Origin: Escherichia phage vB_Eco_PATM
Reading direction: 5' to 3' (one strand)
Sequence record: OX090893
Length of the DNA: 64,000 nucleotides
The notes under the pieces are model-generated. The model saw only the letters and a program-made list of their open reading frames with translations. It ran no database searches and had not been told where the DNA came from. This document shows positions 11,694-61,828 of this stretch, in pieces (position 1 is the stretch's first letter; each line of letters starts with the position of its first letter). Both the position numbers and the translations under genes were made by a program.

Positions 11694-11701
11694 ATTACCT
11701 C

Positions 11702-13225: not shown

Positions 13226-13228
13226 ATA

Positions 13229-13549: not shown

Positions 13550-13558
13550 AAACTCTCC

Positions 13559-13963
13559 TTATTGTAGCTTAAGTGAACTGCGAAGACGTTCCTCTTGCTG
13601 ATCACGAATATGTTGTGGAACCTCATGAATTGAATCGTTACCGTGCCTATTCTCCACAACTAAAGAAATAACTTGATAACCAAACTCTTCGGCAAGAGTT
13701 AAATAAGGTTTAAGTTCTTTTTCTGTAGTAGAGGTATTAGAAACAATAATCTTTTCAACACCATACTGCATATATTTTTGTACTTTGACACGACACCATT
13801 GGTGTGCTTTATGGATATTCTCTTGTTTCCACTCATACACACCATCTTCAGTGTAGTGGTATTGATCTGCCTCACAAATAGGCCAATGATTTTCAGAGAT
13901 AATTTCTGCTACTGTAGATTTACCTGCACCTGAAACACCACGTAAAATGATAAGTTGTTTCAT
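13559..13963 (-). CDS. P-loop nucleotide kinase (polynucleotide 5'-kinase-like)
   Basis: 134 aa; Walker A GVSGAGKST at residues 9-17; small kinase fold like the kinase domain of polynucleotide kinases; directly abuts the ligase-like gene. Confidence 0.55.
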   Translation of the reverse strand: MKQLIILRGVSGAGKSTVAEIISENHWPICEADQYHYTEDGVYEWKQENIHKAHQWCRVKVQKYMQYGVEKIIVSNTSTTEKELKPYLTLAEEFGYQVISLVVENRHGNDSIHEVPQHIRDQQEERLRSSLKLQ

Positions 13964-14896: not shown

Positions 14897-14897
14897 C

Positions 14898-15449
14898 TTA
14901 ATCTCCTTTGATTATCTTATGATGGTCTACAACAACAATATCACGCTTATCCATAATAGAGATGATTTCGTCAAAATGCAAGATTTTCCCGTGTGCATCC
15001 CAACCAACATCCAACATCTTCCCATACAAATGGTCAGGGAATGATCCGTGAGAGTGTCCGTGTAGCATGATTGATCCATGCCCTTGTTTATTCCAGGCAG
15101 CCATAGGGTAATGGCTTAAGACGAAAAACAGCTTCTGATATTTCACTTCGTCATAATAAACCACTTCTCCATACTCTGCAAGCACTTTTCTGTGTTTACT
15201 GTAATCATGGTTTCCAACACAGTAAGTAATATCCCCTTGGAGACGGGAAGCAATCTTACGGGTATCTTCTTCAGTCCCGAAACAGAAGTCCCCAAGATGG
15301 TACATCTTTACTCCTGGTGTTGTGGCACATTTATTCCATGCTTCGATCAGTGCTTCTGTCATATGCTCCATATCTTCCCACGGGCGATATTCAGGAGCAA
15401 ACTCTCGGATACGTTTGTGCATAAAATGCAAATCACTTGTAATAAACAT
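14898..15449 (-). CDS. Calcineurin-like metallophosphoesterase
   Basis: 183 aa; DLHFMH, GDFCFG, GNHD, HGHSH metallophosphatase motifs in canonical order. Confidence 0.7.
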   Translation of the reverse strand: MFITSDLHFMHKRIREFAPEYRPWEDMEHMTEALIEAWNKCATTPGVKMYHLGDFCFGTEEDTRKIASRLQGDITYCVGNHDYSKHRKVLAEYGEVVYYDEVKYQKLFFVLSHYPMAAWNKQGHGSIMLHGHSHGSFPDHLYGKMLDVGWDAHGKILHFDEIISIMDKRDIVVVDHHKIIKGD

Positions 15450-15811
15450 TAGTATAATCCCTCGCTGAATAGTTCACTGTTGTGACCATTTCTTTCGTAG
15501 TTAATTTGTTTGGCGTTATCTGCAATGATATAAGCATCTTTTCGACTCCACCAATTATAATACTGATCAATAAACCCTTGATTATCAGGTAAGCAAAACA
15601 GCTTATCGATCAATCCTGCATCTTTTAAAACATTAAGTTGTGCAGATAGTACAGGATTTGCATGCCTAACACAAGGAATAATTAACTCTTCACCATTGTT
15701 GAGAATATACTTATTCGCAGCGCAGACTATAACACGTTGAGCATAGTGATCCTCACCAATCCAGGTAAGAGGTTGGTAACAAATATCATGTTGATTAGTA
15801 GCGCACATCAA
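15449..15811 (-). CDS. Hypothetical protein (120 aa)
   Basis: ORF adjacent to the phosphoesterase; no motif. Confidence 0.4.
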   Translation of the reverse strand: MMCATNQHDICYQPLTWIGEDHYAQRVIVCAANKYILNNGEELIIPCVRHANPVLSAQLNVLKDAGLIDKLFCLPDNQGFIDQYYNWWSRKDAYIIADNAKQINYERNGHNSELFSEGLY

Positions 15812-15966
15812 TTTTCTCCATACTCTTTTAGTCTATCAGCGAAAAAACTGTAATCAGGAAGTAAAAGATCATTACTCGTATCGCTCCAGTTCTCTTCCTC
15901 TCTATAGATAAAATGCCCTTCATCCTCTTCTTGCTCTGACCAAACTGAATAATGCATAATACCTAC

Positions 15967-16341
15967 TTAATAGTTAACACGTTTAATTTCAACACCATAG
16001 GATGAAATAAAATTTTCCTTAGCTAACATATATTTACCAGCAGCAGAAGGATTTGATGTATGAACATAGATAGTTTTAAGAGCATCCCATTCACCCGCGT
16101 ACAACATACATTCTACATCCAAGAACGCATGATAGCCTTCTTGATCTTCCCCAAGATCATTATCGAAGTGTATTTCTGATATATTGTTGAAATTATCTTC
16201 ATCTGAAACAAAAGATGACCAATCCCCAAAAGATTTTAACCAAATGGCATCCTCATAACCATAATCTTTAGGATCTCTTAAATCGTCTAACCAAAGAATT
16301 TTAGCCACTATCAACCTCCTTCCTGTTTCTCTTCTTTCCAA
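15967..16341 (-). CDS. Hypothetical protein (124 aa)
   Basis: ORF; N-terminal ILWLDDLRDP; no assignable motif. Confidence 0.4.
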   Translation of the reverse strand: MERRETGRRLIVAKILWLDDLRDPKDYGYEDAIWLKSFGDWSSFVSDEDNFNNISEIHFDNDLGEDQEGYHAFLDVECMLYAGEWDALKTIYVHTSNPSAAGKYMLAKENFISSYGVEIKRVNY

Positions 16342-16502
16342 GTTTTACCTTTATCTACCAATTTCTTAGAAACAGCAAATCTTTCCCCATTGATATAAAA
16401 CAAATAAAGAATAAAGGATTTTCCTATAGTTACAGTATCTACTACTTCTACACGCTTCACACCTTGCATGTATTTGGCTTTACCTGAATAAATAAGAAAC
16501 AT
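16311..16502 (-). CDS. Hypothetical small protein (63 aa)
   Basis: ORF in early block. Confidence 0.3.
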   Translation of the reverse strand: MFLIYSGKAKYMQGVKRVEVVDTVTIGKSFILYLFYINGERFAVSKKLVDKGKTWKEEKQEGG

Positions 16503-16780
16503 TACTTATTCCTTTTGTTGTTGATCACATCTAAAGCTGTGTAAGGCTTGTTTGTACCGCTGTATTCAAGAATAATTGGTACATATTCACAGACCAACTC
16601 AAAAGTACCATACACAGAATCTGCAACTGAAATAAGCATTTCAGTGCCTTCGTCGTTCTTAATTAATGAAAATCTTGCCCCTGGTTTATTGAGCACTTCA
16701 TATTTCTTACCTGCTGTCAGCAAACCTGAATACCATTCATTTTGCACAACAGACAAACACTTCAGATATGTTTTTCTCAT
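16502..16780 (-). CDS. Hypothetical protein (92 aa)
   Basis: ORF in early block. Confidence 0.4.
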   Translation of the reverse strand: MRKTYLKCLSVVQNEWYSGLLTAGKKYEVLNKPGARFSLIKNDEGTEMLISVADSVYGTFELVCEYVPIILEYSGTNKPYTALDVINNKRNK

Positions 16781-17118
16781 TTCTTTTTGCTCCTTCTTTT
16801 AGGCTTCTCGTATAAACCTAACACAGCCGATTCTTTTGCACAAATAGGAACTGACTTCATTCCTCGTTTTTTAGCTTCTGGTAGATTCAAAACCCACCAG
16901 CCAAACCAGTACAATTCATCCTCTGTAAAAGGATCTGCCATAGGATCTGCATCACGTTCTTCAAATTTAGCAAGAGCTTCTTCTATCTTTTCTATTGGAG
17001 TATCAAAGACAAAAGCCTCTGTGTCAAATTTTTGTTTCTTAGGAGCGGCTTTTGCCGCCCCATCTTTAGATGCGTGCTTTGTTACGGATCGCTTCTTCGG
17101 TGTTTTCGCCATCAACAA
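16777..17118 (-). CDS. Hypothetical basic protein (113 aa, Lys-rich termini)
   Basis: KKRSVTKHASKDGAAKAAPKKQK N-terminus and KPKRRSKKK C-terminus suggest nucleic-acid binding. Confidence 0.4.
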   Translation of the reverse strand: MLMAKTPKKRSVTKHASKDGAAKAAPKKQKFDTEAFVFDTPIEKIEEALAKFEERDADPMADPFTEDELYWFGWWVLNLPEAKKRGMKSVPICAKESAVLGLYEKPKRRSKKK

Positions 17119-17305
17119 CCTCCATGCGGTGTAAGAAATCTTGCTGGAATCGCCAATACTGTTGACCAGTCCTTACATCTTCGTAGATCACAACAGGATC
17201 AAATACTTTAGCTACACCTGCTGGTTTAGGGAAGCCAACTACACGATATAAACCACCTTTGCTAATACAAGAATATGTTACATCAGTTAAAATTTCTTTT
17301 TTCAT
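17066..17305 (-). CDS. Hypothetical small protein (79 aa)
   Basis: ORF in early block. Confidence 0.35.
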   Translation of the reverse strand: MKKEILTDVTYSCISKGGLYRVVGFPKPAGVAKVFDPVVIYEDVRTGQQYWRFQQDFLHRMEVVDGENTEEAIRNKARI

Positions 17306-17499
17306 TTCTTAATAAACTCCAATACAGGTACGTGATCAGCAGTTAAAGTTACACAATTGTAACTTACCTTTTCAACTTCAGAGAATGCTTCAACCCATAG
17401 CAAGAAATTCTCTTTAGCCTCTTCATAATTCAATGTTGACTTAACAACATGGAACTCACCAAGGATTACTCTATAGATTGTTTGCATAGTTTGATTCAT
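17302..17499 (-). CDS. Hypothetical small protein (65 aa)
   Basis: ORF in early block. Confidence 0.35.
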   Translation of the reverse strand: MNQTMQTIYRVILGEFHVVKSTLNYEEAKENFLLWVEAFSEVEKVSYNCVTLTADHVPVLEFIKK

Positions 17500-17565
17500 T
17501 TATTTTTCCTTTGTTTAAAATGTGTTAAACAATCGCAAATGCTTGTGACGCACTTTGTGATTCCA

Positions 17566-17934
17566 CTAATTAATGTCAGCACTATGATTGTTGAGAGTAT
17601 AGGATACTCCATCGCCCAAGTCAACATGAATCTCAACTCCTAACTGTCTTTCTAATGGTAAACGTTTTGAGAATTGATAATTACAAAGTTTACAGTCTAA
17701 GTCAAGCAACTCATGTTTGCTTAAACCTGCGACGATAACTTTGCTCCCCACTGTCCACTCAATACCTTCAAAGTTATCTCTTCTTTTCAAAATGTCAAGT
17801 AAGAAGATGATTTGTTGCCATTCCGTAGACAAGTCTTCTTCATAGAATGCAGAACAAAAAGTTTTATCATCGTAGAAAGCATACATTATGCCTCCATCTA
17901 TTGTTTCACTTCTAACGTAACGTGTGACCCTCAT
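17566..17934 (-). CDS. Hypothetical protein (122 aa), first gene of the leftward block
   Basis: ORF starting next to the divergent intergenic region. Confidence 0.45.
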   Translation of the reverse strand: MRVTRYVRSETIDGGIMYAFYDDKTFCSAFYEEDLSTEWQQIIFLLDILKRRDNFEGIEWTVGSKVIVAGLSKHELLDLDCKLCNYQFSKRLPLERQLGVEIHVDLGDGVSYTLNNHSADIN

Positions 17935-18065
17935 TATTCCCTCCTGTATGGCTCTGTAACGAGCTAATGGCCTCTAAGATATGCAATCACCTTACCTCAC
18001 AGTAAAACTCGTTACAATCGTTTTTAGGAGGTTCAGGTTGTACTTAAAAATAATCTAAAAAGGTG

Positions 18066-44808: not shown

Positions 44809-45274
44809 TTTAACTACAATCAAGGTGTCTGATCTACCTGTAACAACATCTGTTTCAGACACAGATTATTTTGTAACAGATCAATCAGGCATCACTAAGA
44901 AAACATCATTACGTGTTCTTCTTGCGGGTGCTGGTGTTACACGAAATCGTCTTTCTGCAAGGGGTACTGTCACAAATACCCTAGCTTTAGATATTAGCAC
45001 GGCAGAGTATTTCTCTGCCACTTTATCTAGTCCAACTTGCAGTATTTCATTTAGTAATGTTCCAGTTACAACTAACATTGTTCAAAACTTTACACTATCC
45101 CTACGTCAAGGCAGTGGAGCAAATAAAGTAACGTGGCCTCAATCTGTTAAATGGAGTTTTGGTCGCGCTCCTGTTTTGAGTTATAAACAGGGAGCTACAG
45201 ATATTTTTGAATTTGTTAGTTATGATAATGGAGCTACCTGGATAGGTAGTTTAGTGATGGCAGGAGTGATTTAA
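44801..45274 (+). CDS. Hypothetical baseplate/tail protein (157 aa)
   Basis: ORF overlapping the previous stop. Confidence 0.4.
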   Translation: MADLTTIKVSDLPVTTSVSDTDYFVTDQSGITKKTSLRVLLAGAGVTRNRLSARGTVTNTLALDISTAEYFSATLSSPTCSISFSNVPVTTNIVQNFTLSLRQGSGANKVTWPQSVKWSFGRAPVLSYKQGATDIFEFVSYDNGATWIGSLVMAGVI

Positions 45275-48150
45275 TGTCAAGAATTAAGCACAGAATTGAC
45301 AATGTTTTTCAACTGATCGATGGACATATTCAGTTCTTAGATCGTAATACAGGTTTAACTGTAGATCCTACAGTGCAACACTATGTATTAAACCCACAAA
45401 ACGTTCTAGCTAATAACAGACACTTTATAAACTGGACTGCTCAAGAAGGGCAACCAAACGGGGATGCTACAACAGAAGGTCAATCCGTGCTTATTCTTGG
45501 TTGCGCTTATGCATACCTAGCTTCCGGCGATACAAAGTATTTAGACTCTGCTAAAAAATATTGGCAAGCCTATATAGATTACTTCTTTGGTGGTCAACCT
45601 ATCCCAGATCCGCCAGCAAAATATCGCCCTAACTGGATTATTAACGGTAAAGAACCACGTCTTGCACACTATCCTCTTACAGATGATGGCTACCCTACAC
45701 ACGGAGGTTTTAAGGGTAGCTTAATGACGTGGACTAACGGTAGAACAGTTATTCCTCATGGTGCTCCTCATTGGGGAGAATACCTTGACAAAGCATGGTT
45801 TGCTTTTAATGGTAATCTAGGATGGAACTCTGTAAACGCTACAGTATATGCTGTTAATGCAGATGGTACAACAGATTGGTCTAAGAAGGGAGATCAATGG
45901 GATGTTGATTGGATCATTGATCGTCTAGGACGTAAAGTTGACTGGGATGGAAATGTCTTAGAAGAAGGTTTTCCAACATCTCAATACGGAACAGTTCAAC
46001 TAAAAAATACTTCTGTAAATGGTACATATAAATTTAACTACGCGACTTGTAACCCTGTTGAACACGGTGGTTATTTAATGGAGCGTAACACTATGTGGCA
46101 TAACAGACCAGTTAACGTTCCGGTAGAAATGGGCTTTCAGGATAATGCGTCAGATGCCGAAACTTGGTGGTGTGATGCTAATTACCTGATGTACCAAATT
46201 ACAGGGGAAAGAAAATATTGGCTATGCTGGCAGTCTTCACTGTTAGTGTGTCAAGATTATTCAAACATTGATATGTTTGATAAATTCTTCCGTAAGTCTA
46301 CATATGCAACTATTCCGTTTACAGATGGCATCTCTTACGATTATTCGTATCCATCTACAGCAATACCTAAATATTCAAGAGATACTTTAGGTTATATTGT
46401 TATTAGACAAGATGTTGCTGCTCAAACAACATTAGAACAGCAATCCATTTGGTTTAAAGTTGATCAGAAATCTAAGTTACGAGTTCAGTTCCAAGGTGTA
46501 GATGATGCAGGACATGGTATTCTTTTCCGTCCAGAATTGGAGCTAAGTAAGACCAAAGATGAAAATAACACAGTAACTTACCGTTGTGGCTTACCATTAG
46601 GTACAGCTAATATGACAAGCATGGATATTCCATTATCCAGCTTTATGAGAAGTACCCCTCCAAATGGTGGAACATATATTATCGCAGATCCGCGAATTAT
46701 TGTTGACTGGGGTGACAATACTGTGGTACAATTTAAGTATGTAACAGGTATTGCTGGAACTAATGATGACCAGATTGTTACTGCATCAATGGATACGGAT
46801 GGTGGTGTCACTGTTGGTTTTTGGTTAACTCCTACATCAAAAGCTAATGTTAAGTCTATTACATATAGAACATATGAGGATGACTTTAACATGACTATCA
46901 CGGATGCTCAAGGTTGGAGATGGTGGGCTATGCTGCCTAAAACGCAAGGAGCATGGAGTACGAAGACTTTATCAGCTTCTGATTTTCAGTTAAGTGCTTA
47001 CCAGCCTAATCATCCAGATACAGATCCTAAACCTTCAGCAATAAATCTTACTGCGGTAGATCAGGTAAATTTAGTTCTGGATACGGCTCCTGTCAATGGT
47101 TTAACAGGAACAATAGATTTCTATTGTATTAACGATGTACCTGAAAGATATTCGTCATCTTCTGGTGATGATTATACAATGTACTTCCGTATTACTGTAC
47201 AGGCTTCAAGTCCTCATACTGCTAAGTTAGGTGATTGTACTATTATTGACTATAAGTTAAATAGTCTTAATTACACACCAGGAATAATTCCATTCTCTAA
47301 TATCAGTGACCCAAACACTGCATTATACGATGGATGGCGTGGTATTCCATACCCAGGATACCAGTATCCTTCCTTATACTGTTTCGCAGGTAGGGATATT
47401 GATTGGACACGTTTAAACAACAGTATTGATTTCTTGTATGATGCTCAAATGTGGTTTTATAACACGTTTGATCCTGTGATGCCTGGGCCTATGGCACAAG
47501 CATATGTGTGGGATCGTTGGGATGCAAGAAAATACGGTGAACCTAATACGTTTACAATGAAACACTGGAATGAAAAAGCGTGGGATGGTTATGAAGCTCG
47601 TGCATTCTACTGTGCTTGTCATGCTGTATACGAACTTGTACAAAGAGGAGAAACACCTCCTGAAAAACTAGTAACTGTTTGTAAAAATTGGATCAACTAC
47701 CTTAAATGGTTCCAAGACAATAATGATGGAAGAACACCAACTATCTTTAACCCAGATGGTACAGTTCTTGCGCCTATAGATGACTTTACTAGTCATATGT
47801 CTGCACTGTTTATGGCGGGTTGTTCAATCATGGGCTTGGCAGGTTATGATTCACAAATTCCAAACATTGGTATTGTAGCAGACAGATGTTTTGATCTGAT
47901 TCAGCAAAACTATATTGTGCTCTCCCCTAACCATCCAATGAATGGTTGCTGGAGTGTTGCACCGCGTCCAGATTCAGATAACGGAATGTTCTTTGGTTTC
48001 CATGCTGGAGAACTATTACGTGGTTTTGGTTTATATGCTTTATATCGTAAACTAAATCCTCAAAACGCCTTACCAATTTTGGACAATAGTAACATACCGA
48101 CACTAACTGTTCTAACTATGAATGATATTAGTGTTGATGTAACCAAATAA
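45274..48150 (+). CDS. Large structural protein (958 aa), probable baseplate or fibre component
   Basis: Very long Trp/Tyr-rich ORF in the baseplate cluster; no enzymatic motif recognised. Confidence 0.45.
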   Translation: MSRIKHRIDNVFQLIDGHIQFLDRNTGLTVDPTVQHYVLNPQNVLANNRHFINWTAQEGQPNGDATTEGQSVLILGCAYAYLASGDTKYLDSAKKYWQAYIDYFFGGQPIPDPPAKYRPNWIINGKEPRLAHYPLTDDGYPTHGGFKGSLMTWTNGRTVIPHGAPHWGEYLDKAWFAFNGNLGWNSVNATVYAVNADGTTDWSKKGDQWDVDWIIDRLGRKVDWDGNVLEEGFPTSQYGTVQLKNTSVNGTYKFNYATCNPVEHGGYLMERNTMWHNRPVNVPVEMGFQDNASDAETWWCDANYLMYQITGERKYWLCWQSSLLVCQDYSNIDMFDKFFRKSTYATIPFTDGISYDYSYPSTAIPKYSRDTLGYIVIRQDVAAQTTLEQQSIWFKVDQKSKLRVQFQGVDDAGHGILFRPELELSKTKDENNTVTYRCGLPLGTANMTSMDIPLSSFMRSTPPNGGTYIIADPRIIVDWGDNTVVQFKYVTGIAGTNDDQIVTASMDTDGGVTVGFWLTPTSKANVKSITYRTYEDDFNMTITDAQGWRWWAMLPKTQGAWSTKTLSASDFQLSAYQPNHPDTDPKPSAINLTAVDQVNLVLDTAPVNGLTGTIDFYCINDVPERYSSSSGDDYTMYFRITVQASSPHTAKLGDCTIIDYKLNSLNYTPGIIPFSNISDPNTALYDGWRGIPYPGYQYPSLYCFAGRDIDWTRLNNSIDFLYDAQMWFYNTFDPVMPGPMAQAYVWDRWDARKYGEPNTFTMKHWNEKAWDGYEARAFYCACHAVYELVQRGETPPEKLVTVCKNWINYLKWFQDNNDGRTPTIFNPDGTVLAPIDDFTSHMSALFMAGCSIMGLAGYDSQIPNIGIVADRCFDLIQQNYIVLSPNHPMNGCWSVAPRPDSDNGMFFGFHAGELLRGFGLYALYRKLNPQNALPILDNSNIPTLTVLTMNDISVDVTK

Positions 48151-48158: not shown

Positions 48159-50234
48159 ATGAAACAGGCTATTTTTACTGTAACTCGAAATACGAGAGTA
48201 AATGCCAGTTCATTCAGCTATAAGACCGTCGATGGAACGGCGGTCGCTGGTAGAGATTATGTAGCTAAACAGGGAACAGTAACGTTCCCTTCTGATGCAG
48301 ATTCTGCTACTGTAGTGGTTGATGTATATGAACGTCCGGCAAACTCTTTAGATCTTTATTTTACTCTTGAGATTACTAGCATAAGTCAAAATAACATGAT
48401 GATCAACGAAGAAATTCGTTGTGTTATTACGACTGATCAATCGAATACAACCCCGCTAACTTGGCCTGTTGTGAAGTCTAGAATGTTTGATCCTAAGTTT
48501 TGGACAATAGATTCTCAAGCAACAGAAAGTTGTTCTATTATCTCTAATGGTGATTCTTTCACAGCAAGAATGGTTAATAGGACAGTGGCTGGTCTTGCTG
48601 GGATTATTTGGTCAACTTACGATAAATATGATCACAAAGGATTAGGCTACCAAGAACATTCTGACTTAAGTAAAGAGAAACTTTGGTTTAAAATGGAACT
48701 TAGTCAAGGTGTTCCTGGATTAAAAGAAGAAAAATTAATACCATCCTTAACAGTGACACTGAAGGATGAAACAGTTCATTATGTATCTCTAAACTTTTAT
48801 GCAGAAGAAGTTTCAGAAGATGGTAAGACAGCAACAATCAAACTAGATTTCTCAAATTTAAAATCTGGGCCAGAAAATGATATTGTTGTTGACACTACAC
48901 AGATAGATAATATGTTCTTCTCCTTGATCTCCACAAGGTATCAAGAAATTGAAGATATTATTCCTGTAGACAATGTGGATCTTTCCTTTAAGTTTACCAT
49001 ACTGGAGCCTGATACTGGTTACAGTATGATGAATATGGGTAATTTAAATGTTCCAGCACACACCATAAGAATGTGTACATCTTATGATGATATGTATAAC
49101 CTGACCCCAGAGCGAGTTATTTCTAACACCTACAGATTAGGTTATAGGGATATGATTAACCATTATAATGGTATGTCACACTATTATCAGTTTAGTTGGG
49201 ATGCTGGTTCTAATAAATGGGTTTTGAATAGAACAGAATATTTAAACCCAGCAACAGAAGCATGGTTTGATAATTTCCACGCTAATGCAAAAGCTATGGG
49301 CTACACAGTAATGAACTCCTTAAGTTTTGAACTTATGAGTACAGTGTGTCCTGTAGAATGGGTTCAACATACTTGGAATGATGATCTGGCTGCTACAGGT
49401 TATGAGCCACCAAGTTATGTTTTATCTCCTTCAATTGATGAAGGGATGAATTATTTACAAGGTGTAATAAATAAGATAGCTTCTATATCCGCTGCCAATG
49501 ATCTTCCTGTTATTATTCAGGTTGGTGAACCGTGGTGGTGGTATAACACAGCTACCAATCTACCGTGTATTTATGATTATACAACCAAAGTTGCATTTAA
49601 TAATGAAACTGGATTATATGCACAAGATGTTGGTACAGTTAAGAATTATAAAACTGGTACACCATATGATGAATATTATGCATTCCTATCTAAAACATTA
49701 GGACTGCGTGTTGCTAAATTTGCAACAGATACTAGATTAGCATATCCTGGGGCTAAAGTTACATTATTACCATTTGTGCCATCCATTTTAGGTAACGGTA
49801 TGATGGAGTTTGTTAACTTCCCTAAAGATTATTATATCCCAGAAAACTTTGACTTTTATTGTTCAGAATGTTATGACTGGTTGTTGGAAGGTCAGATGGA
49901 AAGATCTTTCGACGCTATTAAAATACCTAATGAGCAACTAGGTTTTAGTTATGATAAGATACATTATCTTGCAGGGTTTGTTCCAGATGCAACTCTAGCA
50001 CCATTATATGGCTTTGATCCTGAATCAGACTACAGAACATATTTGTGGAAAATGATTATAGGTAATATTGTATTGAATGACCAGAAGTTTGTTGGTTTGT
50101 ATCAATACATATGGGCTTATCCACAAATTATGGCAGATTCATTAACTGTTCTTAATTCAAAATCCCAAGTTTTTTATATGGGTAACGTACCTCTGAATGT
50201 CTTTTTACAAGATACAGTATATGTTTCTTCTTAA
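48159..50234 (+). CDS. Large structural protein (691 aa)
   Basis: Long ORF with RBS AAGGAAA. Confidence 0.45.
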   Translation: MKQAIFTVTRNTRVNASSFSYKTVDGTAVAGRDYVAKQGTVTFPSDADSATVVVDVYERPANSLDLYFTLEITSISQNNMMINEEIRCVITTDQSNTTPLTWPVVKSRMFDPKFWTIDSQATESCSIISNGDSFTARMVNRTVAGLAGIIWSTYDKYDHKGLGYQEHSDLSKEKLWFKMELSQGVPGLKEEKLIPSLTVTLKDETVHYVSLNFYAEEVSEDGKTATIKLDFSNLKSGPENDIVVDTTQIDNMFFSLISTRYQEIEDIIPVDNVDLSFKFTILEPDTGYSMMNMGNLNVPAHTIRMCTSYDDMYNLTPERVISNTYRLGYRDMINHYNGMSHYYQFSWDAGSNKWVLNRTEYLNPATEAWFDNFHANAKAMGYTVMNSLSFELMSTVCPVEWVQHTWNDDLAATGYEPPSYVLSPSIDEGMNYLQGVINKIASISAANDLPVIIQVGEPWWWYNTATNLPCIYDYTTKVAFNNETGLYAQDVGTVKNYKTGTPYDEYYAFLSKTLGLRVAKFATDTRLAYPGAKVTLLPFVPSILGNGMMEFVNFPKDYYIPENFDFYCSECYDWLLEGQMERSFDAIKIPNEQLGFSYDKIHYLAGFVPDATLAPLYGFDPESDYRTYLWKMIIGNIVLNDQKFVGLYQYIWAYPQIMADSLTVLNSKSQVFYMGNVPLNVFLQDTVYVSS

Positions 50235-52623: not shown

Positions 52624-53604
52624 ATGGCAAAGCCACAATACTACCCTGACTGGGCGACACAAACAGTAACCCTCCCAGGAACGGGAAACACAAACAAGAT
52701 TAGACCAAAAGAAACCATCCGTAATGTTGGTATGGACTTTGGTCAGATTATGACTTGTGAAGAAATGAACTGGATCTTAAACAATATTGGGTCTTGGATT
52801 CGCTATATGCAAGATGAATTCTTCCCAACATTGCCTACTACATATCTTCCTATAGTCGGTACTAAAATTACAATGGCAGGTGATGCTACAGGTGAAGTTA
52901 CATGGAATGGTAATGCTGCTGTAACATTATCTATTCAAGTCGTAGATAACAGTCATAATCACTTATCATCTAACATTACAGACGCAACATCAAACCAAGT
53001 TGTAGGTAATGTCCTTGTTAAGCGTGATAATGGTGGTGCTATCTATGCAGGTGATATTTACACTTGTGGTACAAGTGCTACAGATCCTGCAACATTATTT
53101 TTTAGAAACTATAACGGACAAACAGTAGGCAATATGTCTTCTGAACCAGGTGCAGGTGGTCAACTCTATATTTATAGAATAAATCCATCTACTGGAGGAA
53201 CATCTTGTGGAATCCGTTTGTATGATGCAGGTTATGTTTTAATAGACAACCCTCGTTCTAATTCTGGTCAAGATACTGGTAATGGTAATGCTCTTGTAAG
53301 ATTAGATTATCTTAACTCAAGATTAAACTCATTGCAAAGCACACTGCAAAATAATATTAACAACGTTAATAGCAACTTGCAAGGCCAAATTAATAACATT
53401 AACAACAGAGTTTCTTCGGTTGTGTCTTCTATCCGTCTAGGTACACGTATTAGAGCGGGTGTATCTGAATCTCCTTTCTATGCTGGTCATGTGATCACAG
53501 GCTGGGGTTTTGGTGATAAGAAAGAACTTCGTGGTGCTTGGTATTGGTCTGCTCCGCTACAATATTACATTAATGGTAGTTGGATAACAGTAACCAACGT
53601 TTAG
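52624..53604 (+). CDS. Tail fibre protein (326 aa) with Asn-rich heptad region
   Basis: LNSRLNSLQSTLQNNINNVNSNLQGQINNINNRV coiled-coil/Asn repeat; followed by a fibre-assembly chaperone gene. Confidence 0.5.
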   Translation: MAKPQYYPDWATQTVTLPGTGNTNKIRPKETIRNVGMDFGQIMTCEEMNWILNNIGSWIRYMQDEFFPTLPTTYLPIVGTKITMAGDATGEVTWNGNAAVTLSIQVVDNSHNHLSSNITDATSNQVVGNVLVKRDNGGAIYAGDIYTCGTSATDPATLFFRNYNGQTVGNMSSEPGAGGQLYIYRINPSTGGTSCGIRLYDAGYVLIDNPRSNSGQDTGNGNALVRLDYLNSRLNSLQSTLQNNINNVNSNLQGQINNINNRVSSVVSSIRLGTRIRAGVSESPFYAGHVITGWGFGDKKELRGAWYWSAPLQYYINGSWITVTNV

Positions 53605-54177: not shown

Positions 54178-54519
54178 ATGGAGCTAACAGAAGTATGGGA
54201 TATCGCTAAAGAGGCGATTATCCCTCTTATTGGCGTAATCTGGGTGGTCTTCAAACAGAAGATAGATGATATGGCAAGTGATTTGGACAAAATGGAAGAC
54301 AAGTACCGCGAACTAGAAAAGAAGTTGGTGTTTGTTGAATCCACTTATGCTACCAAAGCAGAACTTGCTCAAATGCTTAACCAGATCAACTCTACATTAA
54401 TGGCAAATAATACTGCCTTAGAACAGAAGATTGAAAAAATAATGGATTTAAAAAATGCTCCTGTTCAATTAATGCTAGAGGAGATTACGAAGCGCACACA
54501 AAGTAAGGACAAAAATTAA
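54178..54519 (+). CDS. Membrane-anchored coiled-coil protein (113 aa)
   Basis: N-terminal hydrophobic segment AIIPLIGVIWVVF then charged helical sequence. Confidence 0.4.
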   Translation: MELTEVWDIAKEAIIPLIGVIWVVFKQKIDDMASDLDKMEDKYRELEKKLVFVESTYATKAELAQMLNQINSTLMANNTALEQKIEKIMDLKNAPVQLMLEEITKRTQSKDKN

Positions 54520-56933
54520 TGGCGAATTTTCCAACATATCCTGCTACGACACTAGAACAAGGTGTTGATCTGGTTATATTCTCGTCTAACCAGATGCATG
54601 ATGTTATTAATGGGGATGCTACAGCAACTGTAGAAACCGAAACAGGTTTAATACCTACACTGCGTAAAGCACTTGTTGATAACTTCTTCTTTAAGAGTCC
54701 TGTTGCTTGGTCAGCAGGATCAACTGAAACTGTATTTAACCAGTTACGTTATTTTGAAAACGGTATCTTGAGTGGGTACTATTATGCTCCATCTGCCACT
54801 ACTGCGAACCCTGTACCTATGCAGGGTACACCTGTAGGAGACAGTAACTGGACTCTGTACGCTCTTAAAACTGAACAGTTAGCTTCAGATGTGTATCCTT
54901 GGTATTTTAAAGGTGCTACAGGATATGAAACAGAAATCAGTCCTCCTTATATCTTTGATAATGCTATTGTCACCATTAACGGTGTAATTCAGATTCAGGG
55001 TGAAGCATTTACTATCAAAGATAGTAAAATTATTCTGGCAGAACCATTAGGTTTAGATCCGTCTACTGGTCTACCTAACAAATTGTTTGCTTTTATTGGT
55101 AAAACAACAGCCTCTACTTCTTACGTAGAGAAAAACCTTTTGTCATCTACCACTGGTGCAGCAATGGTTGGTCTTCCATCTGGAGGCAACCTGTTACAAG
55201 CTCAATACTTTGTAACGCCTGAGCAGTTTGGTGCAATTGGTGATGGAGTTACCGATGATACTCAAGCAATTTTAAAAACCATTACTTTCGCTAACACGAA
55301 TAACATTCAAGTACGTGCAGATAAGAATTATAGATTCACAAGCTCAATTGCTATGTCTGGTATTCGTTGGTATGGTGGTACATTCACTGGTAACGGTGGA
55401 ACAATGATTTCTACTGTATCCTGCTGGATTGAAAACGTTCGCTTTGAAAAATGTTATGTTAAGATGTTAGGTGGGGATTGCCGATTCTATCGTAATATCT
55501 TCTCCAACGCAACATCTACAGCAGCATTCTTAATGCAAGCAATGACAAGTGAAGGTACGTTGGACTTCAGTTACAACGAAATGTATGGTTGTAAATATGC
55601 GATCCTGCAACAAGGTACTGGAGAAGTAATGACCTATGGGCGTTACTCTAACAACTATATTCACGATATCAAAGGTGATGCTATTGAACTTAACGTAGTT
55701 CAAAAGCACTACACTGAAGGTTTGATTATCGAGAATAACCACATTGCTAACGTAGATGCTTCTGGACAAGGTGCAAACTGGGGTATTGGTATTGGTGTAG
55801 CAGGTAGTGGCCCATATGGTGTTGATGTTCCTGATTCACAATATGTACGTAATTTCAGTATCATTGGGAATAGGGTTTACAATTGCCGCCAATGTTTACA
55901 CGTTGAAATGGGTAAAAACTTCACAATACGTGATAATGAAGTTTATCCTAACACAGCAGTTTCAACAGGTACAGGTTTAACTACTTGTGGTGTTGCATTA
56001 TACGGATGCCAAGACTTTGAAGTTGATGGTTTAACTGGTTATCTGCTTAATGATCCGTCTGTTTCAACACGCATGGTCTTTATTGACTGGGGTGTTAACA
56101 GTGGAAGATATGCGGGGCCACCAATTAACTTTACAATTAAGAATTTGGATATTCCAGAATCTTCAATTGAGATTGCAACGGCTGGATCAGATGCCTGGGA
56201 AAACTCTACAATTGTTAGTAATATCAATTGTAATGTTTTTAAATGGCGTGGACTACCATCTAGCTCTACCTTTAATAACATTCGTTGCCGTAGTATTGAC
56301 TTTATTGGTCAACATGGAAGCGGAGAAGGAAGTGGTGGCGGTTTCTATACTCGCAGCCAATTCACGTATATGAAGTGGGTAGGATGTACAGCACTTAGCG
56401 GAGATGAAACAACAGTTTCTTTTGCTAAAATCTACACTGATCGTTGCGATCAGGTTGGAAATAACTTTGGTGTTCCAACTGCTGTTGATGGTACAGGTCA
56501 TCGTGGGCCAGTTTTAACTACTATTTCTGAACAATATTTTACAGCTTATGATGAATTCCCAGGTGGGCGTGAATTCCCTACTGGAACAGTTATTCATTGT
56601 GCAAGCGGTAAAAAACATGTTGTTACAGTAGGTGGTGCTTTCTTTAGTAATAACGAGAAAATAAAAGCAACTGTTACAGGTCAAACCTATCTACAGTCTA
56701 ATGCTTTAAACTGGGCTAGTAATGGCTACGCTAAAGCAGCAGGTACTAAGATTGTTATTCCAGGTGCAGGTGCAAATGGCGGCGATCTTGTGACAACTAT
56801 AGCACGTGCTACATATGTGACAAATAGTTTGTACACAATAGATATTGCAGATCCAATTGTAACACCTACAGCAGAGAATACACAAATTAAAGCTCTGAAT
56901 CCTGTTACTTTTGTTACTGTCAATAATGCTTAA
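54519..56933 (+). CDS. Tailspike-like protein with right-handed beta-helix (probable depolymerase) domain
   Basis: 804 aa; repetitive Gly/Asn/Val-rich segments (NNHIANVDASGQGANWGIGIGVAGSG ... IIGNRVYNC ...) typical of parallel beta-helix folds. Confidence 0.55.
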   Translation: MANFPTYPATTLEQGVDLVIFSSNQMHDVINGDATATVETETGLIPTLRKALVDNFFFKSPVAWSAGSTETVFNQLRYFENGILSGYYYAPSATTANPVPMQGTPVGDSNWTLYALKTEQLASDVYPWYFKGATGYETEISPPYIFDNAIVTINGVIQIQGEAFTIKDSKIILAEPLGLDPSTGLPNKLFAFIGKTTASTSYVEKNLLSSTTGAAMVGLPSGGNLLQAQYFVTPEQFGAIGDGVTDDTQAILKTITFANTNNIQVRADKNYRFTSSIAMSGIRWYGGTFTGNGGTMISTVSCWIENVRFEKCYVKMLGGDCRFYRNIFSNATSTAAFLMQAMTSEGTLDFSYNEMYGCKYAILQQGTGEVMTYGRYSNNYIHDIKGDAIELNVVQKHYTEGLIIENNHIANVDASGQGANWGIGIGVAGSGPYGVDVPDSQYVRNFSIIGNRVYNCRQCLHVEMGKNFTIRDNEVYPNTAVSTGTGLTTCGVALYGCQDFEVDGLTGYLLNDPSVSTRMVFIDWGVNSGRYAGPPINFTIKNLDIPESSIEIATAGSDAWENSTIVSNINCNVFKWRGLPSSSTFNNIRCRSIDFIGQHGSGEGSGGGFYTRSQFTYMKWVGCTALSGDETTVSFAKIYTDRCDQVGNNFGVPTAVDGTGHRGPVLTTISEQYFTAYDEFPGGREFPTGTVIHCASGKKHVVTVGGAFFSNNEKIKATVTGQTYLQSNALNWASNGYAKAAGTKIVIPGAGANGGDLVTTIARATYVTNSLYTIDIADPIVTPTAENTQIKALNPVTFVTVNNA

Positions 56934-56974: not shown

Positions 56975-58936
56975 GTGATTTTAACACGTCCAAATAGTGC
57001 CATTGCAGACATGGTAGAGTCTCGCTATAGAAAGCGTAGAAGTTTTGCAAGTGGTTTTACCTTAAGAGATGCTCGTGAAGCATTGCTCTTTGAAGCTGAC
57101 GGTAACTACTATCAGTGGAAAGGTTCTCTACCTAAAGTTGTACCTGCTAACTCTACTCCTACATCTACTGGAGGGATTTCAGATACAGCTTGGAAAAATG
57201 TGGGTAATGCAGATGACATTGCTCAAATAGAATCAGAATTAGATGCTATTGAAGCTGAAATTGAAGATCTTAGAGAATCCATCCCAGAAGCTGGTAAATC
57301 AGCTTACCAGATTGCCGTAGACAATGGTTTCCAAGGTACTGAGACACAGTGGTTGGCTTCTTTAAAAGGTGATCCAGGTGCTCCATTAAAGCTACTAGGG
57401 ACGCTATCTAATACCAACCAATTACCTACAACTGGAAACAATGCAGGGGATGCATGGATTGTAGGCGAGAATATGTATGCTTGGGATGGTACTGCTTGGA
57501 GAAAAGTAAACTCACAGGGGCCAGAAGGTAAATCTGCTTATGAAGTATGGCTTGCAGCAGGAAATGAAGGTACAGAACTAGATTATCTTGCTTCAATTAA
57601 AGGTGATAAAGGGGAGCCTGGCCCAGAGGGGCCACAAGGTGTGCCAGGTAACAATGCTAATGGTTTTGATTACCAAGGTGCAGCCAATTCCGTTTCAGAT
57701 CTTCCTTCTGCATCTCCTGGAAACACATCTCAAGCATGGAGTGTTGGTACATATCTATACGTGTCAAACGGTGTAGAATGGATCAATATGGGTGCTATAG
57801 TGGGGCCAAAAGGAGATAAAGGCGACAAAGGAGATAAGGGTAACACTGGTGATTCCGCTTATCAAGTCTGGTTAAACGCTGGTAACGTTGGTACTATTGA
57901 CGAATATATTGCCTCTCTGAAAGGAGAAAAAGGTGATAAGGGAGACAAGGGTGATCAAGGTGAACAGGGTATACAAGGCTTAACGGGGCCAACTGGTGCA
58001 GGGTTGACCATTATTGATATTCTGACTAGCACTTCTGAACTACCGCAAAGTGGAGAAGATGGTGATGGTTATCTGATCAATAATGAACTTTGGGTTTGGT
58101 TGCAAGGAGCCACACAGTGGACAAATGTTGGTCGTTTAGCTGGTACTCCAATCACTGCAAAAGGACACGTTGCATCTGCAAGTGCACTTCCTCCTACAGC
58201 CAATTACGGTGATGCTTATCTGACGGAAGATACAGGTCATCTTTACATTTACACCTATGATGAACAAACTCAAACTGCTGAATATGTAGATATGGGTAGT
58301 TTGAAAGGTGATAAGGGTGAGAAAGGTGACGCTGGTACTAACGGTACAGATGGTGCAACTTGGATTGTTAAAACAACAGATCCAATCTCTAGTGATGGTA
58401 AACAAGGGGATTATGCCTTTAATATCTCCACTGGCGAGGTGTTCTTAAAAACATCTGCAACTGTCTGGACTTCTCAAGGTACACTACCTAGCATTACAGA
58501 TGCACCTAGTGATGGTAAAATTTATGCTCGTAAAGATGGAGCATGGGAAGAACTCACTAGTTCTGTAGATGGTCAAGATATAGTTCCAACAAAAGTAACA
58601 ACTAATTTTATAGAGGTTACAGCATATACCAACGATTCTGTTACAGGGGACTGGACACCTCCAGGAACACATAACATGAATGTGTTGAATCTTACTGGTA
58701 ACTCTACTATAAAAGCATGGCCTGGTGTCGAAGATAGTACAAAACCTAAACCATTCTCTGCGATAGTTTATCTTATCCAAGATGCCACTGGAGGTCGTAC
58801 TGTTACTTTAGATCCATCTTATAAAGTAATTGGTTCTAGTGATATTAATACAGATCCTAACGGAGTAACAATACTACAACTAACATATTGTGGTGTTGGC
58901 AATTACGTGGATGCTATTGTTGCTAAACGCACATAA
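56975..58936 (+). CDS. Tail fibre protein with collagen-like G-X-Y repeats (GTG start)
   Basis: 653 aa; GPKGDKGDKGDKGNTGDSAY and KGEKGDKGDKGDQGEQGIQGLTGPTGAG collagen-like runs, each followed by SAYQ-W-GN-GT-Y-AS-KG repeat units. Confidence 0.6.
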   Translation: MILTRPNSAIADMVESRYRKRRSFASGFTLRDAREALLFEADGNYYQWKGSLPKVVPANSTPTSTGGISDTAWKNVGNADDIAQIESELDAIEAEIEDLRESIPEAGKSAYQIAVDNGFQGTETQWLASLKGDPGAPLKLLGTLSNTNQLPTTGNNAGDAWIVGENMYAWDGTAWRKVNSQGPEGKSAYEVWLAAGNEGTELDYLASIKGDKGEPGPEGPQGVPGNNANGFDYQGAANSVSDLPSASPGNTSQAWSVGTYLYVSNGVEWINMGAIVGPKGDKGDKGDKGNTGDSAYQVWLNAGNVGTIDEYIASLKGEKGDKGDKGDQGEQGIQGLTGPTGAGLTIIDILTSTSELPQSGEDGDGYLINNELWVWLQGATQWTNVGRLAGTPITAKGHVASASALPPTANYGDAYLTEDTGHLYIYTYDEQTQTAEYVDMGSLKGDKGEKGDAGTNGTDGATWIVKTTDPISSDGKQGDYAFNISTGEVFLKTSATVWTSQGTLPSITDAPSDGKIYARKDGAWEELTSSVDGQDIVPTKVTTNFIEVTAYTNDSVTGDWTPPGTHNMNVLNLTGNSTIKAWPGVEDSTKPKPFSAIVYLIQDATGGRTVTLDPSYKVIGSSDINTDPNGVTILQLTYCGVGNYVDAIVAKRT

Positions 58937-58938: not shown

Positions 58939-58965
58939 AAAGCCCCTTCGGGGGCTTATTATTTA
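58939..58965 (+). terminator. Rho-independent terminator
   Basis: AGCCCC-TTCG-GGGGCT hairpin followed by TATTATTT. Confidence 0.55.
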
Positions 58966-58975: not shown

Positions 58976-61795
58976 ATGTATCCTATTCCTTTATTTATGT
59001 CAACAACATCAGCTTCAGTAGTAACAGCTACATCTATAACCACTTCCTCTATTGGTATTGCAATAGTTGGTAGTAAAAAGCAACTGACATACACAGTTTC
59101 ACCGGAAGATGGTGCGTTATTTGATATAGCTTTTTCATCTTCAGATAATACCAAAATGGTTATAGATAATAGTGGTATGATGGAGTTTGTTGCTGAAGGT
59201 GGTTTTGATGCAATAATGACAGCTAAAAATAATTTAGGTGCTGTCTTAACTGATCAATCTGGTGGTTATGCTTCAGAATTAAGTGTGTACACTGAAAGTC
59301 TATCTGCTATGGATGTAGGCACTACTCAACAGTTGGTTGCTACAATCAGTCCAGAAGGTGCTAAAGACCTTCCAGATATGGTAATTACGTATACCACAAC
59401 AGATCCAGAAGTAGCTACTGTAAGCCCTACAGGATTAATAACTGCTCTTAAAGATGGTAATTGCCGTATAGGTTGTACTGCAACGTATCAAGGAACAGTT
59501 GTGGCCTCTGATAGTTCTTATTTAGGTGTTAATGCTATTCCTGTTATTTCTAATGTAACAGCCGTGGCAAACAGCTATGGAGACGTTCGTGTTGCTTGGG
59601 ATGTAGCTGATCCGCTAGATGGTGATACTTATACTGTAGAAGTATTAGATTTAAGTAATAACAGTGTTCAGTGGACTACAACAACCACGAATACTCATGC
59701 TTACTTTGATATCTCTGACTCTATTCCTCTTTATGGGTTTGCTCCAACATACCTTAAAATTAGCGTTAAGAGCACCAAAGCAGCACCTGTTATCTTTAAT
59801 AACTCAATAGCTACAGATGATTCGTTCATTAAAGAAGTTATTGTCTTTGCTGGACAAGATAACGTAAATGCGCACTTTACAGAATTGTCTGGTGCAAATA
59901 AAGCAGCAATGAGTAGCACAACAGCCCGTAATGCATATGCTACGCAACGTGGTTTAGCAAATGCTGAAGTTCTTCCGTTAAATACAGCTTCTGGATCATC
60001 AGCAGCAGATAAATATGCTGACGATAAAGCAGGAACAGGTACACCAGACAACTACTGGTATGATCTGGATAACACAGCAGATGGGCCATGCTTAACTAAC
60101 TTTATCACTAAAGTCACACCTTATGCAAGTAAGGTTAAAGCAATTATTTGGGGACAAGGTGAAAATGATGCTGTATCCGCATCTTCAACTGTTGCAGGTA
60201 GATACAGTAACACTACACGTTACCATGATGCTACGATAGCTATCTTTGATAAGATGCGTACAATAGTTCCTGCTTCTCAAGCAAAAATTGTTTGGCAGAT
60301 CCTAGGACGTTCTTATTTATATGGTGTAGAAGTTAATGGTGTGGATTGGCAGAAATACAGAAATGTACAAAGAACCATCTCTACAGCACGTGATGATGTT
60401 ATCATTGGTTCTTGGGTAGATGGTGCTGAACGTTACAGTGGCTATGTTTATGAAGAAGGTATTGATGGTCGTATCCATTATATTTCTTCTGTATACCAAA
60501 CAGCAGCTACAAAACTTGCTAAATCAGCAGCAGACGGTACAGACCTAACATCAACGTCACCTGTTTGGGTCGATATGGCTGTTCCAACTGGAGCAACAGC
60601 TACTTCCCAATCTAATCAAGATACAATTTTAGCATGGGATGCTCAAGGTTATAGTAAACACTACTTCCGTAATATTAACGTCTTAACAGCATCTGTATTA
60701 ACTGAACAAACACTTAATACGAACAGCTATACGTTTACCTATGCAGATCAAGTAGCACAATATGGTTTTGCAGCAGGAACTACTATATTTGATGTTGCAT
60801 ATTATGACGAAGCAAATGATGTGTTATCTCCTTTAGTACGTTTTAATGTTAACGTTACAGCAGGAACCGAAGAAGATAAACCTGTCGTGATGGACTATGA
60901 TTTGACGCAAGAAACTCTTCCATCAGATGTTAAGGTTAATGGTGGGAACTCTTTTGCTCGTACTTCTGGAGATACACTTGTAGCCACTAATACCTTGGTT
61001 GCTCCGTTGGAGTATGTTGGTACTACCCCTGTAGGCAGACGTGTAACAGCTAACACAGCTTCACAAATTTTTGTCAACAACGCCTTAACAAGTGCAAGTC
61101 CGTGGGTAAAGACCAACTTAACTGTTACAGCTTCATCTGATAACTCTCCGGCTGGAACTACTGCCAATGTATTCAAATTAACTCCGACTACAACATCTGG
61201 TAGTCATATTTTAACTGCAACATATACTAACGCGTATAACATATATGCCGGACGTAACTGGTCTGCCTCTGTTTTCTTGAAAGCGAACGGGATTACTAAG
61301 GCCAAACTAAGATTAAAAGCAGGAACTGAAGTTAATGAGGGTACTTTTGATTTAGCAGCAGGTACATTCGCAGGAAGTGAAGCTAATATTATATCTATGG
61401 GTAACGGTTGGTATCGTGCTATTCTGCATAAAACAGGGATAGCCAAACAGTCCTCCATAAGTTTTGAAATAATTGCCTTGGATGCGACTGGTGCGGAGAT
61501 TTTCGCTGGGGATGGTACTAGTAACCTTGCAGTTTGGTTGCCACAGCTTGAAGGTGCTCCTACAGGAGAAACATCAAAAGCCGGAGCGCCTTATGTCTGC
61601 ACATACCCTGGAAGTTTAGGAGGAGTATCCTTCACTATACCAAGGAACGGACATACTGGTGTGGATGTTTACTATTCCAACGGGGACGTTGTTCGTGACG
61701 TATTCTCTGGTACGGCATCTACTTGGACAATAAACTACTCCAGCTTGTACGATTGGGGATCAGTCTTTATTACAGGTTTGAAATATTACGACTAA
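58976..61795 (+). CDS. Tail fibre/receptor-binding protein with Ig-like (Big_2-type) domains and a putative SASA-type carbohydrate esterase domain
   Basis: 939 aa; Big_2-like VATVSPTGLITALKDGNCRIGCTA; esterase-like VIVFAGQDNVNAHF (GQSN-like) and IIWGQGENDA (QGE-x-D-like). Confidence 0.5.
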   Translation: MYPIPLFMSTTSASVVTATSITTSSIGIAIVGSKKQLTYTVSPEDGALFDIAFSSSDNTKMVIDNSGMMEFVAEGGFDAIMTAKNNLGAVLTDQSGGYASELSVYTESLSAMDVGTTQQLVATISPEGAKDLPDMVITYTTTDPEVATVSPTGLITALKDGNCRIGCTATYQGTVVASDSSYLGVNAIPVISNVTAVANSYGDVRVAWDVADPLDGDTYTVEVLDLSNNSVQWTTTTTNTHAYFDISDSIPLYGFAPTYLKISVKSTKAAPVIFNNSIATDDSFIKEVIVFAGQDNVNAHFTELSGANKAAMSSTTARNAYATQRGLANAEVLPLNTASGSSAADKYADDKAGTGTPDNYWYDLDNTADGPCLTNFITKVTPYASKVKAIIWGQGENDAVSASSTVAGRYSNTTRYHDATIAIFDKMRTIVPASQAKIVWQILGRSYLYGVEVNGVDWQKYRNVQRTISTARDDVIIGSWVDGAERYSGYVYEEGIDGRIHYISSVYQTAATKLAKSAADGTDLTSTSPVWVDMAVPTGATATSQSNQDTILAWDAQGYSKHYFRNINVLTASVLTEQTLNTNSYTFTYADQVAQYGFAAGTTIFDVAYYDEANDVLSPLVRFNVNVTAGTEEDKPVVMDYDLTQETLPSDVKVNGGNSFARTSGDTLVATNTLVAPLEYVGTTPVGRRVTANTASQIFVNNALTSASPWVKTNLTVTASSDNSPAGTTANVFKLTPTTTSGSHILTATYTNAYNIYAGRNWSASVFLKANGITKAKLRLKAGTEVNEGTFDLAAGTFAGSEANIISMGNGWYRAILHKTGIAKQSSISFEIIALDATGAEIFAGDGTSNLAVWLPQLEGAPTGETSKAGAPYVCTYPGSLGGVSFTIPRNGHTGVDVYYSNGDVVRDVFSGTASTWTINYSSLYDWGSVFITGLKYYD

Positions 61796-61797: not shown

Positions 61798-61828
61798 AAA
61801 AAGGAGCCATTAGGCTCCTTTTCTTTTA
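61798..61828. terminator. Bidirectional terminator hairpin between convergent genes
   Basis: AGGAGCC-ATTA-GGCTCCT stem-loop with A-run upstream and TTTCTTTT downstream. Confidence 0.6.

Follow-up and report, generated by a model that had tools for sequence, protein, structure and literature searches.

A SASA-type SGNH domain without its nucleophilic serine in a modular protein from the tail-fibre cluster of a phi92-like Escherichia phage

Organisation of the gene and of its product

We analysed a stretch of 64,000 nucleotides of Escherichia phage vB_Eco_PATM (sequence record OX090893), called the window below, and focused on the gene at positions 58976..61795, which encodes a 939-residue protein. 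Judged by its sequence, the window comes from a phi92-like Escherichia coli myovirus (Justusliebigvirus). The gene is complete, starts with ATG and lies on the plus strand, as do all of its features given below. The open reading frame (ORF) appears in the ORF list just as in an initial annotation of the window, which had proposed a receptor-binding protein combining immunoglobulin (Ig)-like domains with a carbohydrate esterase of the SASA type. An AAGGAG ribosome-binding site can be read 5 nt upstream of the start.

From its N-terminus, the protein is composed of a short segment, two Ig-like domains of the Big_2 type, a first linker domain, a SASA-type SGNH domain, a second linker domain and an exchangeable jelly-roll domain. 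The N-terminal segment and the first Ig-like domain (residues 1-105; 58976..59290) gave a match to Pfam Big_2 (PF02368) over residues 18-90 with E 0.0015 and 18.8 bits, below the family cut-off of 22.8 bits. The second Ig-like domain (residues 106-188; 59291..59539) was matched over residues 112-170 with E 1.5e-11 and 44.5 bits, above the cut-off. The Big_2-like segments proposed at the outset were therefore recovered, one of them as a weaker copy. The protein is also matched from residue 10 onwards by PHROG 215/885 ('structural/major tail protein with Ig domain'), and its second Ig-like domain matches a carbohydrate-binding protein (PDB 6n1a, E 1.4e-4).

The two linker domains, named a (residues 189-279; 59540..59812) and b (residues 536-631; 60581..60868), are presumed beta-sandwiches. 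No Pfam family matched domain a. Domain b shares homology with the domains repeated at the C-terminus of N4-type gp65; its BLASTP matches comprised residues 983-1059, 1190-1258 and 1282-1364 of SPSP gp65 as well as the phiAxp-2 repeats. The two linker domains are taken as paralogous because the equivalent first linker domain of Av-05 aligns to domain b. Neither trimerisation elements (coiled coil, triple beta-helix, beta-helix) nor an N-terminal baseplate anchor were found among the Pfam and PHROG domain matches of the 939-residue protein.

The central SGNH domain and its active site

The central domain (residues 280-535; 59813..60580) can be described as a pseudo-esterase module, of SASA-type SGNH fold but devoid of the nucleophilic Ser. 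Taken alone, the window sequence scored 15-17 bits against Pfam SASA (PF03629), below the gathering score of 24.8 bits, so that the esterase call is weak on single-sequence evidence. A single-sequence search of the PDB missed N4 gp65 and all esterases. With the central domain as query, a word-indexed protein search returned two near-identical fragments only, and a scan of IMG/VR two near-identical loci only. Relatives were collected by an exhaustive HMMER search with residues 280-535, which gave 76 representatives; 117 domain copies were extracted and aligned. A profile built from 41 domain copies recovered from the PDB both N4 gp65 and the esterases. Among the latter, 2APJ (E 9.5e-8) and 1ZMB (E 3.5e-6), two SASA structures, ranked ahead of GDSL enzymes and NanS. 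Pfam SASA was matched by 33 of the 41 relatives at E<0.01, with a best E of 2.3e-14.

The AlphaFold2 (AF2) model of the domain had a predicted local distance difference test score (pLDDT) of 96.6 and a predicted template modelling score (pTM) of 0.93. It displays the SGNH alpha/beta/alpha fold of the SASA/CE6 branch. Foldseek ranked N4 gp65 first (E 2e-13; template modelling score 0.81-0.83) and SGNH esterases next. The SASA family is defined by a Block I Gln adjoining the Ser and by a Block III (H)QGE motif, with an inverted oxyanion hole (PMC9487903). Both elements are present in the window protein, as Q294 and as W392-G-Q394-G-E396, where Gly takes the place of His. Overall, the SGNH fold of the central domain is genuinely of the SASA type, and the resemblance, held at the profile and fold level only, is far above chance.

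We then considered the catalytic residues. The GQDN and QGEND motifs on which the esterase proposal had been based were found where claimed, as G293-Q294-D295-N296 (nt 59852-59863) and Q394-G395-E396-N397-D398 (nt 60155-60169). The consensus of Block I in the family is FAGQSNAxGHF. GQDN is thus GQSN with the Ser replaced: the codon GAT at 59858..59860 places Asp295 in the column of the catalytic Ser, a column that the profile aligns with the GQSNMAG motif in both 2APJ and 1ZMB. Within the survey of the 76 representatives, Ser occupied the column in 68 of 90 aligned domain copies, Asp in 5/90 and other residues in 17/90. Of the five Asp copies, two were the phi92-like sequence and a nearly identical fragment of that sequence, two came from the Av-05-like group (GGDN) and the fifth was an unrelated first-copy domain. 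A sequencing error as the source of GQDN was rejected: the motif occurs in independent genomes, including those of phages Bas60 and ALITA, and GAT is two substitutions away from any Ser codon.

The other signature residues are kept. These are Gln294 in Block I, Gly340 in Block II, the QGE of the (H)QGE motif in Block III (residues 394-396; 60155..60163) and the catalytic His of Block V, His501 (codon CAT, 60476..60478). The Block V His was found in 68/83 aligned copies and was near-invariant in alignments A1 and A2. Asp497 stands at position -4 from His501, rather than -3; a Block V Asp is optional in the SASA family, and NanS lacks it (PMC9487903). As read from the aligned sequences, the canonical triad (or dyad) is absent, and the active site appears to be specifically without its nucleophile rather than generally decayed, as Block I still has its Gln, Block III its QGE and Block V its His501. 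The SASA/CE6 acetylesterases NanS (3PT5), CAC0529 (1ZMB), At4g34215 (2APJ) and SIAE differ from the window domain by the Ser of their GQSN, which is Asp295 here. The window domain also differs from them in its location between linker domains of a virion protein and in its score below the Pfam threshold. The initial annotation was therefore right about the SGNH/SASA fold, as supported by profile, AF2 and Foldseek, whereas the catalytic triad that an esterase would need was not found.

The SGNH domain is descended from true GQSN acetylesterases. In a neighbour-joining tree, the GQDN and GGDN clades were sisters and their neighbours carried GQSN, GQSN and GQAN. This sisterhood implies one Ser-to-Asp event. 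In the sister clade of the Av-05 type, GGDN is accompanied by loss of the Block II Gly (FIAS) and of the Block III Gln (SLGEQD), and the neighbouring close relative with GQAN has an Ala at the nucleophile position. Such losses are the pattern expected without selection on catalysis.

Codon-level comparisons of the window gene with those of Bas60, ALITA, EmilieFrey and ECGD1 gave, for the SGNH-like domain, ratios of nonsynonymous to synonymous substitution rates (dN/dS) of 0.016-0.045, with 1-2 nonsynonymous vs 11-18 synonymous differences in 256 codons. The values for the other four domains (Ig, linker and C-terminal) ranged from 0.09 to 0.26. The SGNH-like domain is the most constrained part of the gene and under strong selection, and the direction was consistent across the comparisons. 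For this reason, the idea of a decaying relic was rejected.

Strong constraint on a nearly complete active site raises the question of whether the central domain still works as a carbohydrate esterase. Asp295 would then act as the nucleophile, through an acyl-aspartate, or would serve together with His501 as the general base activating a water molecule, and the virion would deacetylate a surface polysaccharide. The retention of Gln294, Gly340, QGE 394-396 and His501, the extreme purifying selection on the domain and the conservation of the Asp between the phi92-like and Av-05-like lineages would all fit such an enzyme, and two GenBank records, those of ALITA and KMB37, name the orthologue 'tail carbohydrate esterase'. 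Several points nevertheless argue against it. We know of no SGNH member that uses an Asp. A close relative has Ala at the nucleophile position, and in the second copy of the domain in N4 gp65 the module persists without Ser and His. The SGNH mechanism relies on a Ser nucleophile and a covalent acyl-enzyme, and no other one is described in a review of these enzymes (PMC9487903). Overall, a working esterase is improbable in our opinion. Esterase activity of the central domain being unlikely, the proposal that the virion deacetylates a surface polysaccharide is left unsupported, GQDN having Asp295 where GQSN has its Ser. An esterase had moreover been proposed before, in the two database records mentioned above. 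This annotation is beginning to spread and deserves correction: the domain has an esterase ancestry and its nucleophile is missing.

Relationship to N4 gp65, the C-terminal domain and possible function

The first-ranked structural match of the central domain comes from another phage group. N4 gp65 is a receptor-binding sheath protein recognising NfrA and the N4 glycan receptor (NGR) (PMC13434306). The 41-copy profile matched it twice (9LC0_I; also 9YF4) with E 7e-91, and the 939-residue protein is matched by PHROG 15324, 'tail sheath and receptor binding protein', with E 7.8e-38. Using tblastn and BLASTP, an SGNH-like domain followed by a linker-type domain was found in N4-type gp65 (residues 433-605 and 726-983 of SPSP gp65), in proteins of Achromobacter, Pseudomonas and Delftia phages annotated 'tail sheath and receptor binding protein' and in a protein of a Pseudomonas autographivirus. 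Like the window protein, N4 gp65 associates the SGNH-like domain, in two copies, with linker domains of the same kind, which are repeated after it. The second copy has neither Ser nor His (GINQ ... WIYY), and the module is therefore able to serve non-catalytically.

The two proteins also differ. N4 is a podovirus and its gp65, of 1382 residues, begins with NCTSP_N and a TIM barrel, keeps the Ser in its first SGNH-like copy (GESQ) and forms a hexameric sheath with gp64; the window phage, a myovirus, has a contractile tail of its own. The full gp65 architecture was not found in the 939-residue protein, which has one SGNH-like domain and neither NCTSP_N nor a TIM barrel. These N-terminal domain types are present elsewhere in the window. 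The ORF at 48159-50234 (plus strand, 691 residues) contains Calx-beta, NCTSP_N (3.8e-21) and TIM-barrel_NCTSP (7.9e-82), the latter two being Pfam families built on the gp65 N-terminus. It occupies the variable tailspike slot in which the endosialidase of phi92 sits. Most gp65 domain types thus appear, from the domain matches, to be split in this myovirus over two proteins, the product of 48159-50234 and the 939-residue protein. For the 'glycan deacetylase' homology between N4 and Vequintavirinae mentioned in the BASEL paper, the TIM-barrel protein is probably a likelier referent than the 939-residue protein.

A side observation concerns N4 itself. The first SGNH-like copy of gp65 (residues 437-601; 9LC0/9YF4; locus L004, 1711-5859) ends after Block III. 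The Block V portion of the profile that this copy lacks, His included, is matched by residues 18-78 of gp64, a separate small subunit of the sheath, with E 4.7e-4. This suggests that an SGNH domain is split across the gp65-gp64 heterodimer. With its Ser kept, this first copy could be catalytically competent.

The sheath role of the N4 protein leads to another possibility, in which the SGNH-like module of the window protein binds no ligand and is a rigid structural or assembly spacer, for instance a surface on which another fibre, or the baseplate, would dock. Host contact would then be made by the C-terminal jelly-roll and possibly by the Ig domains. Indeed, the homologous N4 domains are building blocks of a six-fold non-contractile sheath in which gp65 pairs with gp64 (PMC13434306), and protein-protein interfaces likewise give low dN/dS. 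Moreover, syntenic proteins of the Phapecoctavirus type, which have no SGNH module, show Ig domains joined directly to the C-terminal domain. Two observations speak against a spacer. The 628-residue forms (ECGD1, PD06) keep the SGNH module and have no C-terminal domain, so that the module is not merely a spacer carrying that domain. In addition, a pure spacer does not account for Gln294, QGE and His501 having been selectively kept around what was once the pocket. We hold this possibility to be rather doubtful, yet less so than a working esterase.

The C-terminal domain (residues 632-939; 60869..61792) consists of a jelly-roll core (residues 700-863; 61073-61564) with a small beta domain after it. 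The core is matched by the NCBIfam model NF048003, GTA_spike_fiber, with 70.3 bits (E 2.9e-19) against a curated cut-off of 36 bits. Residues 639-937 match residues 164-455 of the distal tail protein gp17 of Shigella siphophage Sf11 (PDB 9occ, E 1e-19), the C-terminal appendage of which is unmodelled (PMC12724387). In the AF2 model, an all-beta core has pLDDT >90 for about residues 709-861, with an overall value of 78.9. Foldseek matches of this model included CBM22, CBM61 and CBM16 (carbohydrate-binding modules, CBMs), lectins and Pa193/E217 chains. A profile search retrieved more than 1,500 metagenomic proteins containing the jelly-roll core, often as two tandem copies and almost all without a Pfam domain. 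The core that defines this family carries the motifs GNGWYR and W.(A/P)QLE, and the NCBIfam GTA_spike_fiber model is the only one to cover it.

This part of the gene also varies among phages. The EmilieFrey allele of the C-terminal domain shows 62.5% amino acid identity and a dS of about 1.6, while the gene is otherwise 97-99.6% identical. The domain is absent from phi92 and from the ECGD1-type phages, which have the 628-residue form, also found in PD06. Overall, the C-terminal domain is a swappable, CBM-like jelly-roll. Polysaccharide binding by this domain is putative; it is suggested by the CBM-like fold of the model and by analogy with the head spike fibre of RcGTA (rcc01080), which shares the GTA_spike_fiber core and binds capsular polysaccharide experimentally (PMC10218006). 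The carriers and the virion positions differ, with a capsid spike for RcGTA and a siphovirus distal tail protein for Sf11 gp17. As an exchangeable element, the jelly-roll is a likely specificity cassette for host-range engineering.

Taking these elements together, we favour, with moderate confidence, the view that the 939-residue protein is a modular and probably non-catalytic glycan adhesin, in which the ex-esterase pocket would bind its target rather than cleave it and the C-terminal jelly-roll would give strain specificity. The SGNH domain would no longer run the acyl-enzyme esterase cycle and would probably act as a lectin-like or docking module. Its former active-site pocket may hold an acetylated or otherwise conserved glycan of the envelope, with strain-specific glycan binding supplied by the variable jelly-roll. 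The enterobacterial common antigen (ECA) and NGR are candidate ligands because phi92-like phages, as well as N4 phages, require wecB (PMC8594841; PMC8669472), and the GlcNAc of ECA is partly O-acetylated by WecH (PMC7439462). The gp65 link thereby designates a concrete candidate module for the glycan (wecB) dependence common to both phage groups.

A precedent may be offered by the CE2 esterases (2W9X, 2WAO). By an analogy drawn from entry titles, these proteins share the SGNH fold and would bind polysaccharide non-catalytically in their catalytic cleft; the title of entry 2W9X refers to 'divergent catalytic and non-catalytic binding functions'. They belong to another SGNH subfamily and keep their Ser, unlike the window protein. 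The trimeric fibre gp63.1 of phage G7C (4QNL), described as an O-antigen deacetylase (PMC8594841), is a distant structural relative from another SGNH subfamily as well, and again differs from the window protein, which has no Ser nucleophile.

Several points weigh against a non-catalytic adhesin. Strong purifying selection together with the retained His501, Gln294, QGE and Block II Gly would be expected of an active enzyme too. The dN/dS values come from four comparisons, each with one or two nonsynonymous changes; having the window sequence in common, the comparisons are not independent. Two lineages that are only 48% identical both have the Asp, which suggests selection on the Asp itself. Its placement next to His501 is derived from the alignment to Blocks I and V. 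Glycan binding and virion incorporation of the protein are themselves putative. ECA or NGR is a plausible ligand, the link being circumstantial. Finally, the phi92 and ALITA records both have a disrupted gene, so that its function is dispensable on laboratory hosts.

Along the same line, there is a slim chance that Asp295 is alive. The domain would then be a new SGNH variant with Asp/His-based acetyl hydrolysis or transfer, or an esterase turned into a 'reader' of O-acetylated ECA or NGR. If the latter were true, a module common to phi92-like myoviruses and N4-like podoviruses would explain their shared wecB dependence and the unusually broad host range.

Orthologues, neighbouring genes and flanking signals

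At the DNA level, the gene is 99.3% identical to that of Escherichia phage KKE7M and 97-98% identical to those of about 20 further Justusliebigvirus myoviruses, including the BASEL phages Bas60-62. At least 80% of the gene is covered in 25 phage records. Synteny with phi92, ALITA and PaulScherrer identifies it as the intact orthologue of phi92 gp152+gp153 and of gene 0037 of Bas60, in agreement with the earlier view of a receptor-binding gene cluster. Phi92 gp152/gp153 and the Justusliebigvirus orthologues occupy the same slot after the colanidase gp150 and the collagen-like gp151, and the orthologues are 94-99% identical over residues 1-628. In contrast with the intact, full-length window copy, the phi92 reference record (NC_023693) has a 226-nt deletion in the region of the first linker domain, a 2-nt insertion and no C-terminal domain, which is why its annotation shows two ORFs, gp152 and gp153, instead of one. 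The ALITA gene has an in-frame stop at codon 720. These lesions of phi92 and ALITA appear to reflect gene decay in some laboratory lineages, or are sequencing errors.

The gene is known and widely sequenced. Labels given to the orthologue by depositors include 'tail protein', 'lateral tail fiber protein with intimin and glycosidase domains' and 'non-contractile tail sheath', besides 'tail carbohydrate esterase'; it is annotated 'lateral tail fiber protein' in Bas60 (PaulScherrer), and in BME3 it is a 939-residue 'tail fiber'. A 2026 cryo-EM paper on phi92 does not mention gp152/153 (PMC13450770). What is new is the recognition of a Ser-less, strongly conserved SASA domain and of its kinship with the N4 sheath. 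The initial annotation had noticed neither the phi92-like nature of the phage, nor the module homology to N4 gp65, nor the separate, exchangeable CBM-like C-terminal third. These results refine a known system and do not overturn its current understanding. They bear on phi92-like and related phages, whose very broad host range has led to their development for therapy.

Some records carry unexpected host labels. In four 'Campylobacter phage' records (MG065639, MG065645, MG065656 and MG065689; host C. jejuni, about 146.4 kb), the domain is 99.5-99.6% identical to that of E. coli phi92-like phages. Close matches to the gene or to its domains also came from phage records labelled Serratia and Acinetobacter, the latter at 63% and limited to the Ig and C-terminal parts. 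Wrong host labels or contamination may explain all these records.

The gene is the last of the late tail-fibre cluster and is followed by convergent replication and methylase genes. Of the two genes just before it, the first (54519-56933) is orthologous to gp150 of phi92, a colanidase tailspike (PHROG 6117, E 1.8e-269; synteny), and the second (56975-58936) to gp151, a collagen-like fibre (Pfam Tail_spike_N 3.4e-21, Collagen 1e-7; synteny). Their description as a tailspike and a collagen-repeat fibre thus proved accurate. Unlike the 939-residue protein, both neighbours possess Tail_spike_N. Three different fibre or spike genes do lie side by side, as had been proposed; the window however holds more than three such genes, with further receptor-binding genes at 45274-48150, 48159-50234 and 52624-53604, the last one with a chaperone. 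This multi-adhesin layout is that already published for phi92 as a 'nanosized Swiss army knife' (PMC8594841), and the multivalent apparatus is also described in PMC13450770.

Two hairpins flank the gene. A GC-rich hairpin, AAGCCCCTTCGGGGGCTT (58940..58957, plus strand), follows the stop codon of the gp151-like fibre gene and precedes the 939-residue gene; it was found as a terminator-like site in a consensus scan and by reading of the sequence. It may cause partial termination or attenuation of transcription, and could in this way lower the expression of the last gene relative to that of the upstream fibre genes. Promoter-like sites around the 939-residue gene were no more frequent than in shuffled sequence. 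Just 3′ of the stop codon, the consensus scan detected a strong terminator made of a hairpin with a 10-bp stem and then a T-run (61799..61822, plus strand), common to the 939-residue gene and to the convergent minus-strand genes. The same position is annotated as a terminator in the record of phage Paula. The sign of the GC skew flips near 18 kb and again near 62 kb (window 1-18000 vs 18000-62000), and the second flip coincides with the change of coding strand at this convergent terminator.

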